Source: a virus
Strand: one strand, 5' to 3'
DNA: 64,000 bases
Virus record (IMG/VR): IMGVR_UViG_3300035698_010466
Coordinates: 1 to 64,000 of that record
Below are positions 24,328 to 60,531 of this stretch, piece by piece (the first letter of the stretch is position 1; each line of letters begins with the position of its first letter). Under the pieces are notes generated by a model. That model was not told the DNA's origin. It made no database searches and was given only the letters and a program-made list of their open reading frames with translations. The translations under genes and the position numbers were made by a program.

Positions 24328-24792
24328 ATGTCAAATAATTTAAAACAAAACATTAGCCCTCGTAAAGCACTTTTCCTTTTACGAGGGCTACCGTAATTAG
24401 GTTGCGGGAAAAGCACTGTCGGTAAAAGTTTATCAGGTGGGACTGGTTCAGATTATTTTGAAGCTGATATGTACCATTACGATAAAGATGGAAAGTATGA
24501 CTGGAAACCGGAAAATGTTAAACGCGCTCATGACTGGTGTAAATCTGAGACAGAATATGCAATGGAGTTTGGTCATAGGTCAATGCATGGTAAATTCCCT
24601 TTACATACTGTAGTTGTTTCAAATACTTTCACACAAGAATGGGAAATGGAAGATTACTATAAATTAGCAGAGAAACACGGTTATATCGTATTTTCATTAA
24701 TTGTTGAGAACCGTCATGGTGGTGAAAACATTCATAACGTACCACAAGCAGTATTAGATAAAATGAAAGGTAGATTTAACATTAAATTATAA
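24328..24792 (+). CDS. AAA_33/polynucleotide-kinase-like P-loop kinase interrupted by in-frame TAA TTA in Walker A (candidate bypass)
   Basis: LFLLRGLP*L GCGKST...FEADMY...AHDWC...VVVSNTF...HNVP; removing 24394-24399 restores GLPGCGKS. Confidence 0.8.
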
Positions 24793-24795
24793 TAT

Positions 24796-26033
24796 ATGAA
24801 GAATACAATTTTTATACCAAAGAAATGTAAAGTAGGATTAATCCTAGGAGTGATACGTATACCGGAAAACTCGGATATGTAATTTATAACGATGGAAAGA
24901 AATGGCGCAAGGAAGCATCATGGAGTTCATGGAAGTATAATTATATTGATGATGGCGAATATGAAAAACAAAAGAATAAGCAATATAATGATAAGATTGA
25001 TGAAATCTTAAAAGCTGAACCGTATGAAAGATATAGTAATAAGAAGAGACCTGCTAAGGATGGCAAATGCGAAGTTTATTTAGGATATCTTAAAAATTGG
25101 GTAAGATTTGATCCTATTAATACAAGAGAAGAAGCTGAAGCATTATTACCTTATGATGTATTCGAACCGCAAATTAGACAGAGTTCAAATGATCATGGTA
25201 TGAAAGTATTAGAATTTGAAAATACTGCACTTGATGGATTTGCTTTAAATAAAAAAGCTGGTGGTGGTAGTTCCGGATGGAATTCTCGCCAGACTTACTG
25301 TAGAGTATACGATCCAAGAGGATTTGAATTTGAAATTTCGATTCCTAATCTTCTTTATATCTTAGAGAATACTAATTCAATAAAAGGTAAAGGATTGGAA
25401 GGTAAATTCATATATGGATGGGAAGGTAAAGATCTTATTCTTATACCTGAAAGCGCACCTGAATATGAGGAGATGATGAAATACACAGAACTTCAAGATG
25501 GTAAGGTTTTTAAACGTGACATGGTACCAGGTGGTGTATATCTTGATAAGGATGGGAACCGAGTAACTTATATGGGCGATGCATATTCTCTTGACTATTA
25601 TAATAGAGTTAGTTCTAAAAAGAAAATTTGGTTTTGTAAAAACGGTATTAGCAGGTTTTTAAACAAGAGTGATGTAAAATCAATTAAAAAGGATTTAAAA
25701 GAATTCAATGATGATTTTGCTAATTTGATGGATAAATTAGAAAACGTAAAATCATATGTTAAAGGTAAGCCTGAATATATTTTATCAACAATTACAGAAA
25801 TTGATTTACTTCGTTCTTTTGATAAAGGAGATAATTATTATGGCATATATAACTACTATATTAAAAAGGATGGTAAATTTAAGCCTATTATAATTAAGCG
25901 TAATTGGAATAATTCAAGAACAACTTATTCACTATTATGTAGTAAATCTTATGATAATAACGCAGGACAATATGATACATTAAACAAATTATTAAAAACA
26001 AATGAACTATGGGAACTAAAAACGACAAAGTAA
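24796..26033 (+). CDS. conserved phage hypothetical protein, 1-nt frameshift near 24839
   Basis: MKNTIFIPKKCKVG joins an open frame NPRSDTYTGKLGYV... that runs into ORF 25200. Confidence 0.65.
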
Positions 26034-30281: not shown

Positions 30282-30490
30282 CAAATAAAATTAGTAAAGA
30301 AATCTAAATCTTGGATGGATACATCAATGTAGATTGGCAAGGATATTAATTTTATCAATAAGTAGCCGAAAGGTGTAGATAAACTAATGCATGATACGAG
30401 TACAGGGAACCAGCCCAATGACTCTACTTATGAACTTATCGCTAATAGGTTTCCACCTTGGGAAGCGTTAAATATTCCTAAACGGACCAC

Positions 30491-30560
30491 GTCTGCGTAG
30501 TGTAATGGCTAGCATATCTGACTGTCTATCAGAAGGAGGGGTTCGAATCCCACGTCGACG
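30491..30560 (+). tRNA. tRNA-Asp(GTC)
   Basis: TCTGA-CTGTCTA-TCAGA; G73. Confidence 0.75.
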
Positions 30561-30640
30561 GCTAAGTTAATAGTAAACGCACCTAACGATTCTGAAAAGA
30601 ACCGCGGACAAAATTCTTAGGTCTATTAACATTTTTAAAT

Positions 30641-30715
30641 ACCTTTGTAGGCCTCTTGGTGAGGAACTAGGCTGTCAACCTAGTAAGACAAACGGATCGT
30701 AACCGTTCAGGGGTG
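30641..30715 (+). tRNA. tRNA-Asp(GTC), second divergent copy
   Basis: CTAGG-CTGTCAA-CCTAG; G73. Confidence 0.8.
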
Positions 30716-30720
30716 CAAAT

Positions 30721-30958: not shown

Positions 30959-31034
30959 CGGGTGGTAGAGGAGTCAGGTTTATCTCGGTATCTTTGGACG
31001 ATACAGCACGCAGGTTCAAATCCTGCTCACCCGA
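30959..31034 (+). tRNA. tRNA-Pro(TGG)
   Basis: GTATC-TTTGGAC-GATAC; C1-G72, A73. Confidence 0.85.
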
Positions 31035-31141
31035 CGACGGAGTTTTAATATTTTATTTTCTTCAAGTAAAGAAATTTTAAGTAGTCCTAGACAAAAGAAA
31101 TTTTAAATAAAATGATATGACTGATGGAGAGACATCAATAT

Positions 31142-31217
31142 CTGGTGGTAGAGGAGTCAGGTTTATCTCGGTATCTTTGGACGATACAGCACGCAGGTTC
31201 GAATCCTGCCTATCAGA
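31142..31217 (+). tRNA. tRNA-Pro(TGG), near-identical second copy
   Basis: Same body as the copy at 30959. Confidence 0.85.
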
Positions 31218-31582
31218 CAATTATATTAAGTTGAAAATCTAACATTGTATTATGTTATACTAAATACCTTGGTACAACATATTAAGAATTGGTATTTTAT
31301 TACAATTTCAAAACCTATGAATACGTTAGATTGATTGATGATACTATAAAAGATTCCCCAATATACCAATGGTTTCAACAGTTGCGGGGTGCGAGAAGTG
31401 TCGATACGGATTTATAACCTGTATAAATAACCTGACAGTCAACTTGGACTATTATTGTTTCATAGAGGTATGGCTTAATATAATTTTTTAAAATTATCAC
31501 AGTGGGCTGTTAATTAAAATGTTTAAAAAATATATAGATGAATTTAATCCTTTACCAGGTATTAAATACTCAATAAATTAAT

Positions 31583-58111: not shown

Positions 58112-58895
58112 GATTTATGCTAGATGGTATAAGCATACTCCGAATTGGGGAGATGCTTTAAATAAAGTAATGATAGAAAAAATCTCAGGTAAAACTGCTA
58201 CATGGATTAATACTAACGATGGTAACATTATTGAAAAATATATTGTGTTAGGCAGTATACTCCAATGGGCTGATGAACATACTATTATTTGGGGACCAGG
58301 ATTTATTGCTGATGATAGAAGGTTATCAAAGAAGCCTAAAAAGATTTGCGCAGTTCGTGGGCCTTTAACTAGAGATATTATATTAAAACAGGGATATGAT
58401 TGTCCTGAGGTTTATGGCGATCCTGCTTTACTTTATCCAAGATTTTATAATCCTAAAAATATTAAAAAGAAACATAAGATTGGAATAATTCCTCATTATA
58501 TTGATGCCGATTGTGCATGGATCAACAGATTAAAGAAACATGATATTAAGATCATAAATATATTAGATCCTATTAATAAAGTGGTTGATGAAATTTTAGA
58601 ATGCGAAAGAATAGCAACAAGTTCATTACATGGTATTATTGCTGCTGATGCGTATGGCATACCATCAACATGGATAAAATTATCAGATAAAGTATTAGGT
58701 GATGGTTTTAAATTTAGAGATTATTTTATGTCAGTAGGCAGAAAGGATAGAAATCCATTAGTCGTTAGTGAACATACATCATTAAAAAAGGTACATGCTC
58801 AGTTTTATGAATATACGATAGCTATTGATTTAGATAAATTATGGAAAGCATGTACCCTTTTAAAAAATAAGAATATGAAAAAACGACACAATTAA
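58104..58895 (+). CDS. polysaccharide pyruvyl transferase
   Basis: NWGD, GSIL, AVRGPLT, GDPALL, SSLHG. Confidence 0.85.
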   Translation: MDKIYARWYKHTPNWGDALNKVMIEKISGKTATWINTNDGNIIEKYIVLGSILQWADEHTIIWGPGFIADDRRLSKKPKKICAVRGPLTRDIILKQGYDCPEVYGDPALLYPRFYNPKNIKKKHKIGIIPHYIDADCAWINRLKKHDIKIINILDPINKVVDEILECERIATSSLHGIIAADAYGIPSTWIKLSDKVLGDGFKFRDYFMSVGRKDRNPLVVSEHTSLKKVHAQFYEYTIAIDLDKLWKACTLLKNKNMKKRHN

Positions 58896-60531
58896 TAAAA
58901 TAAGAATAAATTTTTCACATCATTATACCCGACATATTTTAAAAGCTTTAAAAACTACAGGCGGAGATATTGAACATGATCCTAATATTCCACCTGAATT
59001 TATATATGTTAATGATGAGCTTGTTGGATACATTGCATGGTGGGATTCTCTTAAATTTACATCCGCAAATCTTAAAGCAATGGGGGAAAATGATTTTAAA
59101 ATAATTTTTAAATTTCATTATAGTCCTAATGTTATGGATTATTCAATATATGGTAAATATGAAGATAGAATAGTTCCATGTGGATTATGGCGGACTTGGG
59201 AAACTGATGATCCTAATTATAAATGGGATAAGAATAATATAATGGAAAGACCAAGACCTATTGATGTTACTGCTCAAATGAGACATATTAATAATAATAA
59301 AAAATGGTACCCATGGTCGCATATTAGATTAAAACTTAAGAACCTTGCTAAAGCTATGAATGATAAGGGATTTAATACTTCATTTAAAATAATAGATAGA
59401 AAGGTTTATGAAAAAAAATTATTAGATACAAATACGGCATTCATCTGGAGTGCGACAGCATACTTAGGTTGGAAGATATGTGAATTTTTGGAACAAGGTG
59501 TCATAATGATAACTGAACCGCTAGGTAAAGATTATCCTTTATGTAATGGCGTTGTACTAGAGGATGATGTACATTGCGTATTTTGTAATGATCCTGACCA
59601 ATTTGAAAATGTTGCTAAACAATTATTAGCAGACCCAAATAGAATAAAGAGAATAAGAAAAAATATTTTAGATCTTTGGGAAGATAAACTAACACAATCA
59701 CATATTGGAAATTGGTATATGAATAAAATTATAGAAACTTATGAAGATCTTAAATTGGAGCCTGTTATAAATATTTCATGGTGGAATAAAAATGGTAAAA
59801 ATTGGGGAGATGCCCTTAATCCTATTTTAGCTCGATATATATCCGGTAAACAAATTAATTGGATTAAGACAGGTGATTCTAGTGATGTATCACGATTTTA
59901 TTGTATAGGAAGTATTTTACAATCAACTATGTCTAAGAATAGTGAAATATGGGGGACAGGATTAATGAGAGCTGAACATAAAATAAAAGTTAAACCTAAA
60001 AAGATACACGCAGTAAGAGGGCCTTTAACTAGAAAAAGTCTAATTGAACAAGGAATTGAATGTCCTGAAGTTTATGGAGATCCTGCCTTACTATATCCAC
60101 GATTTTATAATCCTGATATAGAAAAACAATATAAGTGGGGAATCATACCACATTATATAGATCAGAAAGTACCATGGTTAGATAGATTCAAAAATATGGA
60201 AAATGTTAAAATTATAAACATATTAGATCCTATCAATAAAGTAGTAGATGAAGTAAAGAGTTGTGAATTAATCATATCAAGCACCCTTCATGGAATCATA
60301 ATAGGTGATGCTTATGATATACCTTCTAAATGGATTTTACTTTCGAACAAAGTTGGTGGTGGTGGTTTTAAATTTAGAGATTATTTTGCATCTGTAAAAA
60401 GAACTGATGCCGAACCTATTATATGTAAACCTGATCTTAGATTAAAAGATATTGAACGCCAATTTGTTGATTATAAAATAGACATTGATTTAGATTTACT
60501 TTATAAGTCATGTCCATTTAAACGTAAATAA
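58875..60531 (+). CDS. glycosyltransferase-like domain fused to a polysaccharide pyruvyl transferase (true start probably 58875; 1-nt indel)
   Basis: Frame open upstream of 59080; C-terminal half is a paralogue of the 58104 gene. Confidence 0.7.

Follow-up and report, generated by a model that had tools for sequence, protein, structure and literature searches.

In gene 60 of bacteriophage T4, ribosomes bypass 50 nucleotides (nt) of the coding sequence, or 20 nt in the clade with the shortest gap (PMC5462505; bioRxiv 10.1101/2022.08.31.505936; bioRxiv 10.1101/2024.12.09.627546). Pairing of the mRNA leaving the ribosome has been proposed as the forward driver of this bypass (bioRxiv 10.1101/2024.12.09.627546), and the gene 60 cassette is described as belonging to the mobA element (Bonocora et al. 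2011, as cited in bioRxiv 10.1101/2022.08.31.505936). In synthetic stop-hops built in Escherichia coli, as summarized in a 2016 review, matched codons flank a stop codon and 9 nt are read as one amino acid (Weiss et al. 1987; O'Connor et al. 1989; PMC5009743); of natural in-frame stop hopping the same review states that 'no occurences are known' (PMC5009743). Here we describe two P-loop kinase genes in a virus genome (IMG/VR record IMGVR_UViG_3300035698_010466) in which a hairpin is followed by a take-off codon, a stop codon and a coding gap of only 6 or 7 nt, and we consider it probable, from comparison with related sequences, that ribosomes skip this gap in both genes by a programmed stop-hop, a short form of translational bypass. 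The genome comprises 90,935 base pairs (bp) with 28.9% GC, and the window analyzed is its first 64,000 positions. An initial annotation of this DNA had spoken of jumbo phages, an assignment that was not borne out: at 91 kb the genome is not of jumbo size. We found no published description of a hairpin-stop cassette in P-loop kinases in the literature.

Two P-loop kinase genes with short coding gaps

The first interrupted gene (site 1) begins with a short open reading frame (ORF) that ends in CTA CCG TAA. Past this stop the same frame continues as TTA GGT TGC GGG AAA AGC and remains open as far as 24792. Removal of positions 24394-24399 yields LLRGLPGCGKST, where intact homologues read LLRGLPGSGKST; since these homologues have no interruption, the window carries six extra bases, TAATTA, between the Pro and Gly codons of the Walker A motif. 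Only when these bases are taken out does the GxxxxGK[ST] motif after strand β1 become canonical. With the stop read through, the protein matches Pfam family PF13671 (AAA_33; 29.2 bits, cut-off 27) and PHROG 2071 'ATPase' (E = 1e-37), which identifies it as a polynucleotide-kinase-like AAA_33 ATPase and not as the nucleotide kinase first suggested. Homologues of this kinase 1 are present in 616 phage records. A megablast of the region against phage records that exclude near relatives of the genome gave no match. Intact homologues lack the N-terminal extension of about 10 amino acids (aa) that forms part of the site 1 ORF; those of Pseudomonas phages, which adjoin an RNA ligase gene, read M..LYLLRGLPGSGKST with neither extension nor interruption. 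The first in-frame start codon 3' of the stop lies at 24469, past the P-loop, so re-initiation cannot yield the kinase.

The site 1 hairpin consists of 13 perfect base pairs closed by an 11-nt loop, and its last paired base directly precedes CCG. No perfect inverted repeat elsewhere in the genome is longer or richer in GC than this stem, which has a folding energy of about -20 kcal/mol, fold z-scores of -4.4 to -5.9 and none of 200 shuffled sequences as stable. The initial description of this site, namely a hairpin-CCG-TAA-TTA array with a 13-bp stem and a 22-aa ORF, and recovery of GLPGCGKS upon deletion of the gap, holds in every detail.

Comparison with relatives shows that this arrangement recurs. 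Among 80 IMG/VR loci fetched with the kinase 1 body, the break falls at the same point of Walker A in eight, six of them distinct. Each of these has an N-terminal extension, and the 3' arm of its GC-rich hairpin codes for (L)RG(V/L). Together with loci fetched through a neighbouring endonuclease gene, this gave a set of 29 distinct IMG/VR cassettes, to which the following counts refer. The take-off codon encodes Pro in 29/29 (CCT 22, CCG 5, CCA 2) and is directly followed by a stop codon in 29/29 (TGA 16, TAA 11, TAG 2). The gap measures 6 nt in 24 cassettes, 7 nt in three, and 8 nt and 9 nt in one each, and its exact removal restores G(V/L)PGxGK(S/T) in every case. The last triplet of the gap is CTA (11), CCA (7), CCG (7), TTA (2), CCT (1) or TCA (1). 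It thus conforms to YYN (two pyrimidines and any third base) throughout, with 15 Pro codons and 14 YYA variants that need G·U pairs. This pattern, a Pro codon or its C-to-U variant still able to form G·U pairs with anticodon UGG, is the signature expected of re-pairing by a peptidyl-tRNA-Pro and supports such a step. Seven cassettes carry stop-hop motifs of the matched type, CCU-UAG-CCA, CCU-UGA-CCA and CCG-UAA-CCA.

The second interrupted gene (site 2) is of the thymidylate kinase type. Its homologues from marine metagenomes, at 70-78% identity, read MSKFIIIEGTDNTGKDTQQ, carry PF02223 and have the P-loop EGTDNTGKDT; alignment with them defines a gap of 7 nt, TAAAGGC. The site 2 protein matches PHROG 761 (E = 1.4e-7), and its P-loop, EGxDxxGK, is canonical only after these 7 nt are removed. 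The hairpin ends at the base directly before GAC, and the nine N-terminal residues that encode its 5' arm form an extension, as at site 1. In a genome-wide scan of 48-nt windows the hairpins of site 1 and site 2 (-20.5 and -20.3 kcal/mol) rank first and second, and both are more stable than every tRNA or terminator-like hairpin in the genome. The initial proposal that an unrelated kinase has the same geometry is thereby confirmed, with GAC, TAA and a 7-nt gap. All 37 IMG/VR relatives are uninterrupted and have no hairpin.

Two further cassettes of the thymidylate kinase type were found elsewhere. The first, L003, belongs to a 462-kb uncultured phage (GenBank LR756500.1; L201 and L207 are the same phage) and has a 13-bp stem, then GAC TGA G TAC, then AAT ACA GGT AAA. 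The second, L213, was the one new true case among 15 matches to a metagenome pattern scan for 7-nt thymidylate kinase cassettes; in it GGGCCCCTCGA is paired with TCGAGGGGCCC, followed by GAC TAA G GAC, where the landing triplet is matched, and AAT GTT GGA AAA. The window has GAC TAA A GGC at the corresponding position. The equivalent IMG/VR pattern scan returned only the L003 phage again and one chance match. Although the kinase bodies of the three lineages are only 41-48% identical, all have a 7-nt gap after GAC and an open downstream frame. Their stems covary, with GGA/TCC in the window and GGG/CCC in L003 and L213, and the third base of the Pro codon in the stem is paired as U·G, A-U or C-G across the three lineages. 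No nuclease gene adjoins any of the three in the DNA examined. A further homologue of the site 2 kinase, P0030, has a gene call that starts with MRGPTDNVGKDTQQ (MRGPTDNVGK), which is one residue too long for the P-loop and lacks strand β1; it may be another interrupted allele.

Table 1. Coordinates, in the window, of the two interrupted kinase genes and of the duplicated tRNA genes.
Feature	Position	Strand	Remarks
Site 1 N-terminal ORF	24328..24396	+	MSNNLKQNISPRKALFLLRGLP, then stop; 22 codons from ATG 24328
Site 1 hairpin, 5' arm	24354..24366	+	TAGCCCTCGTAAA; encoded by N-terminal extension
Site 1 hairpin, 3' arm	24378..24390	+	TTTACGAGGGCTA; codes L-R-G-L (strand β1 and Walker A start)
Site 1 take-off codon CCG (Pro)	24391..24393	+	
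Site 1 coding gap, 6 nt	24394..24399	+	Stop TAA 24394-24396; putative landing triplet TTA 24397-24399
Site 1 kinase body	24400..24792	+	Resumes at GGT (GCGKST...); 130 codons, final TAA
tRNA-Asp(GUC) genes (two)	30490-30562, 30641-30716	+	tRNA for the proposed site 2 hop
tRNA-Pro(UGG) genes (two)	30959-31035, 31142-31218	+	tRNA for the proposed site 1 hop
Site 2 N-terminal ORF	41322..41384	+	MTKINNGSLQSKFIVLEGPD, then stop TAA; 20 codons from ATG 41322
Site 2 hairpin	41340..41378	+	Outer 9-bp stem 41340-41348 / 41370-41378, plus inner helix
Site 2 take-off codon GAC (Asp)	41379..41381	+	
Site 2 coding gap, 7 nt TAAAGGC	41382..41388	+	Stop TAA, spacer A, putative landing triplet GGC
Site 2 kinase body	41389..41952	+	NTGKNTQQ...; +1 frame relative to N-terminal ORF

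Conservation of the hairpin and mobility of the cassettes

In order to compare the hairpins in a common register, every cassette was anchored at its take-off codon; a plain MAFFT alignment submitted to RNAalifold misaligned the arms and recovered only 5 stem pairs. In this register positions -2 to -8 from the take-off codon are paired in 29/29 cassettes, and the stem takes in the first take-off base in 21, ends at -1 in seven and at -2 in one. Compensatory pairs occur at -1 (CG 19, AU 6, UA 2, GC 1), -3 (CG 26, GC 3), -4 (CG 18, UA 10) and -7 (CG 22, UA 7). The covarying sites are third codon positions of the conserved R-G-V/L segment, and the 5' arm, which is not conserved, follows them, indicating selection on pairing itself. 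Folded as 66-nt segments, the cassettes have a median minimum free energy of -23.2 kcal/mol (range -30.8 to -18.1), compared with -4.4 kcal/mol for 46 distinct intact homologues (range -10.6 to -0.3), with no overlap between the two. A search of Rfam gave no family match, only a sub-threshold chance match to RefA9 (24.8 bits against a gathering score of 49). The hairpin is not a terminator, as no cassette has a U-tract 3' of it.

The coding sequence downstream of the gap has been retained. A complete frame of 116-130 codons follows in 29/29 interrupted genes, and the pairwise ratio of nonsynonymous to synonymous substitution rates (dN/dS) has a median of 0.24 at dS values of 0.6-1.2. The comparison of homologues that the initial annotation had called for revealed a conserved, covarying hairpin, a stop codon and a gap varying between 6 and 9 nt.

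Two smaller helices that involve the gap were observed as well. At site 1 a 7-bp helix, CCGUAAU/GUUGCGG (24391-24402), bridges the stop codon. In the L041-L200 cassettes the take-off codon CCU can pair with AGG, made up of the last landing base and the GG of the resume codon, to form a stem-loop of 3 bp over the gap, with C-G, C-G in 7/7 sequences by RNAalifold; this may correspond, in minimal form, to the take-off stem-loop of gene 60, or may follow from the landing rule.

The cassettes are mobile. In a tree built from 56 distinct kinase bodies, the seven interrupted rows are scattered, requiring seven changes for seven rows, of which at least four are forced by well-supported branches; the interrupted L041 is 86% identical to the intact L052. 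Relative to the intact L089, L104 contains a 1.3-kb insert that replaces the native first 12 codons, and homology restarts exactly at the Gly codon after the landing triplet. The insert carries a divergent gene, at 418-1308 in L104, for a protein of 291-336 aa with a zinc finger, three to four NUMOD3 repeats and a TnsA-like/PD-(D/E)xK nuclease domain. This nuclease is present in five of the six kinase-side loci, with 50-54% identity among its copies, and in 45 of 80 loci fetched with the nuclease an interrupted kinase gene lies divergently upstream. More distant homologues of the endonuclease (L159 onward) have no P-loop gene divergently upstream. Taken together, the patchy tree, the insert in L104 and the nuclease linkage indicate that the substitute 5' gene end belongs to a homing-endonuclease element, a connection that formed no part of the initial annotation. 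The element appears to target the P-loop coding sequence and to supply the N-terminal extension, hairpin, stop codon and gap. By analogy with mobA and gene 60, the gap may shield the site that the element itself targets from cleavage and yet leave the host gene functional. The cassette of site 1 aligns with the nuclease-linked cassette of L145, making the window copy an orphan; both window cassettes are orphans whose endonuclease gene is gone or never arrived.

A small lipoprotein-like ORF of 81 aa (L104:164-409) was noted in the 1.3-kb insert, with the upstream host gene on one side and the endonuclease gene on the other. Beyond the window, the genome has one endonuclease-like gene that is frame-broken (65586-66705, overlapping ORFs 65586-66164 and 66124-66705) and another with NUMOD3 repeats (69719-70630), neither of which belongs to the TnsA-like family tied to the kinase cassettes.

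A proposed ribosomal hop and its alternatives

The same break occurs in dozens of wild relatives, so ribosomes most likely hop over the gap; we infer both the hop and the role of the hairpin as its driver from the comparative record. In the mechanism we propose, the ribosome would read the short N-terminal ORF, melting the hairpin on its way, and would pause once the stop codon enters the A site, while the P site is occupied by peptidyl-tRNA-Pro paired with CCG at site 1, or by peptidyl-tRNA-Asp paired with GAC at site 2. Peptide release is slow after a C-terminal Pro, and tRNA-Pro is prone to shifting. At the pause the 3' arm of the stem would lie inside the ribosome and the 5' arm outside; the portion of the stem next to the loop, from about -12 onward, would already have emerged, with the GC-rich 9 bp next to the take-off codon still inside. 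Re-zipping of the stem would then move the mRNA through the exit side by 6-9 nt and break codon-anticodon pairing, competing for the first take-off base, which is part of the stem in most relatives. The peptidyl-tRNA could re-pair 6 nt further on at UUA (site 1) or 7 nt further on at GGC (site 2), and in relatives on YYN for tRNA-Pro and on GAC, GGC or UAC for tRNA-Asp. Decoding would restart at the next codon and yield the P-loops GLPGCGKS and EGPDNTGKNT. A hop of 9 nt from CTA (Leu) to TTA (Leu) at site 1 was ruled out; it would lose the conserved Pro, and it conflicts with relatives that have GTG or GTT in place of CTA.

The idea of a short hairpin-aided hop with wobble-tolerant landing had been raised initially from site 1 and site 2, and comparative support for it is strong (29 relatives, YYN landing triplets, a covarying stem and kept frames). 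By contrast, the accompanying suggestion that the hop controls nucleotide kinases is unsupported, as the cassettes behave as the footprint of a mobile homing endonuclease and not as a regulatory device.

Several observations weigh against the hop. Neither landing triplet in the window is a matched codon: UUA would need two G·U pairs in the P site, and GGC a central G·U. Elsewhere in the assembly, and unrelated to the cassettes, the reading frame is broken by 1 nt within homopolymer runs at no fewer than two places (24796-26033 and near 58880), so gene decay or sequencing error does exist in this genome. The low dN/dS could in part reflect divergence older than each cassette's acquisition. In addition, a tblastn search of the whole window genome found no member of the cassette-linked nuclease family, only similarity to NUMOD3 repeats at 69.8-70.2 kb.

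On an alternative view both genes are dead: a selfish cassette or its decayed remnant would have destroyed the Walker A motif, no full-length kinase would be made, and the hairpin would be of use to the element or have no role. In its favor, the nuclease of the element is missing from the window, other genes of the assembly are frame-broken, and the kinases are accessory genes that a phage could lose. We nevertheless regard this as unlikely, because all 29 downstream frames are complete with dN/dS of about 0.24, the N-terminal ORF always keeps its ATG and an in-frame strand β1 up to the stop, and the 5' arm tracks synonymous changes of the coding 3' arm. Moreover, landing triplets remain YYN while nearby synonymous sites are saturated, and three thymidylate kinase lineages at 41-48% identity share the 7-nt layout.

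It is very unlikely that the gap is instead decoded, through read-through (6 or 9 nt) or a +1 or +2 frameshift at the stop (7 or 8 nt), a reading under which the P-loop would be two or three residues longer. In the window the addition would come to exactly two in both genes, at site 1 through read-through and at site 2 through a +1 shift, and the phage has 30 tRNA genes, odd ones included, among which a suppressor tRNA could help. Yet read-through, or a +1 frameshift of the prfB type, implies one fixed frame relation, and gaps of 6, 7, 8 and 9 nt are found within a single family; with gaps in all three frames and all three stop codons, neither read-through nor any one type of frameshift can be the common mechanism, and a separate one would be needed for each gap length and each stop. 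The product would carry P, L, S or RP inside GxxxxGK, which is seen in no intact homologue among about 120 loci, and the consistent match between the triplet before the resume codon and the take-off tRNA would be left unexplained.

Removal of the 6-9 nt from the RNA, or transiently from the DNA, by a hairpin-guided cleavage-and-ligation activity would restore the P-loop equally well, with the hairpin as a possible recognition element; relatives encode an RNA ligase and a polynucleotide kinase (PNK)-type kinase, and kinase 1 relatives adjoin an RNA ligase gene. We hold this to be highly improbable, since no known system cuts out 6-9 nt beside a stem, there is no Rfam match, and neither the obligatory stop at the first gap position nor the correspondence of landing triplet and take-off anticodon, L213 included, would be explained. 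Finally, an assembly or sequencing artefact, for which the homopolymer-type frame breaks elsewhere in the assembly might speak, is scarcely credible, as dozens of metagenome assemblies, independent of one another, and LR756500.1 all carry a non-homopolymer insert of 6 or 7 nt beside a hairpin.

The tRNA genes of the window are of interest with respect to the proposed hop. As reported initially, tRNA-Pro(UGG) and tRNA-Asp(GUC) are each present in two copies; in the array of 30 genes only one other anticodon is duplicated, tRNAs with a CAU anticodon aside. In both copies of tRNA-Pro(UGG) the anticodon loop reads UUUGGAC, which places A at position 37. The usual base there in bacterial tRNA-Pro is G37, whose 1-methylguanosine form (m1G37) normally restrains tRNA-Pro slippage. 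The first copy of tRNA-Asp has the loop CUGUCUA with U37, and mismatches in its acceptor stem. The notion that the phage supplies dedicated hop-prone tRNAs (Pro with A37, Asp with U37) for both kinase hops is speculative and post hoc, and we consider it distinctly unlikely; if it were true, the phage would set the efficiency of the hop, and with it the supply of kinase, through expression of its own tRNAs.

The two homopolymer-associated frame breaks differ in kind from the cassettes. The gene 3' of kinase 1 (24796-26033) reads MKNTIFIPKKCKVG from ATG 24796, with the remainder (NPRSDTYTGKLGYVIY..., 400 codons) in the -1 frame; homologues read MKSTIFIPKLCKVGFNxRSDTYTGKLGYVIY, and the window accordingly lacks one T of TTT (GGA TT- AAT, ~24838-24840). 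A third cassette was ruled out here, as a single T is missing from a T-run and there is neither hairpin nor stop; the break is a sequencing error, a recent mutation or a -1 shift. The protein belongs to a family with no known function, with homologues in Bacillus, Clostridioides and Pseudomonas phages. At 58879-59080, the first 200 nt of a 550-codon pyruvyl-transferase-like frame (PF04230) have no start codon; an ATG with an A6 run (ATGAAAAAACGAC) near 58880 lies one frame off, and with one A fewer MKNDTINK... would be in frame, so that a homopolymer indel or transcriptional slippage accounts for the break. The type II topoisomerase genes at 37364-40581 (GyrB-like, 625 aa; GyrA-like, 447 aa) are contiguous and unsplit; the phage has T4-like terminase and sheath genes but no split of the gene 60 type.

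Relation to known bypass systems

The kinase cassettes share with T4 gene 60 a stop codon directly 3' of the take-off codon; re-pairing would likewise occur at a landing triplet, which is matched in some cassettes and would depend on G·U pairs in others, those of the window included. As in the gene 60/mobA system, the insert lies within a mobile cassette that encodes an endonuclease and replaces a segment of the gene, and orphan (hit-and-run) copies exist. The differences are considerable. The gap is 6-9 nt instead of 50 and has no internal take-off stem-loop or Shine-Dalgarno sequence; there is no evident nascent-peptide signal of the KKYK type, the upstream ORF being about 20 codons long. 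A strong 5' hairpin dominates and abuts the take-off codon, whereas the 5' stem-loop of gene 60 is weak and not conserved. The tRNAs are those for Pro and Asp instead of Gly, the host genes are P-loop kinases, and the nuclease is of the NUMOD3 and TnsA-like kind instead of the MobA type, with no sequence homology to the gene 60 cassette. Programmed bypass on a homing-endonuclease cassette is thus known as a class from T4 gene 60; the kinase cassettes lack the defining parts of gene 60. A hairpin driver would represent, by analogy, the model of pairing by the exiting mRNA in a much simpler form.

Like the synthetic stop-hops, the cassettes can have matched codons around the stop (seven cassettes, and GAC-UAA-G-GAC in L213), and the hop would be independent of frame. 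Those hops are unstimulated, artificial and of low efficiency, while the proposed hop would be natural, conserved, hairpin-assisted and tolerant of G·U pairs at landing. The byps of Magnusiomyces capitatus mitochondria (Lang et al. 2014; Nosek et al. 2015), as outlined in the 2016 review, are likewise short mobile coding inserts that are skipped, at times with an imperfect (two-out-of-three) landing match; in that account they differ in being 27-55 nt long and GC-rich with structure inside the gap, in needing peculiarities of the mitochondrial ribosome and an unused A-site codon, and in not being endonuclease-linked (PMC5009743). The candidate UUA bypass in the gene for the terminase of Streptomyces phage Hau3 resembles the kinase cassettes in its short gap within a phage gene and its slow-to-decode A-site codon, but its trigger is a rare sense codon tied to host tRNA supply, a regulatory logic, and it has no 5' hairpin-stop and no P-loop target (PMC10732093).

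Kinase genes of the cassette type are currently called truncated genes or pseudogenes by gene callers. The study of bypassing has long been based on one well-studied natural case, T4 gene 60, and on the yeast mitochondrial byps. If the reading of these genes as stop-hops is correct, many natural versions would exist of a minimal bypass signal made up of a hairpin, a take-off codon, a stop codon and a 6-9 nt gap. The use of two different tRNAs within a single genome would make the role of mRNA re-pairing at the ribosomal exit testable with small reporters. Homing endonucleases would then have arrived at least twice at an insert skipped by ribosomes, which would protect the target without killing the host gene.

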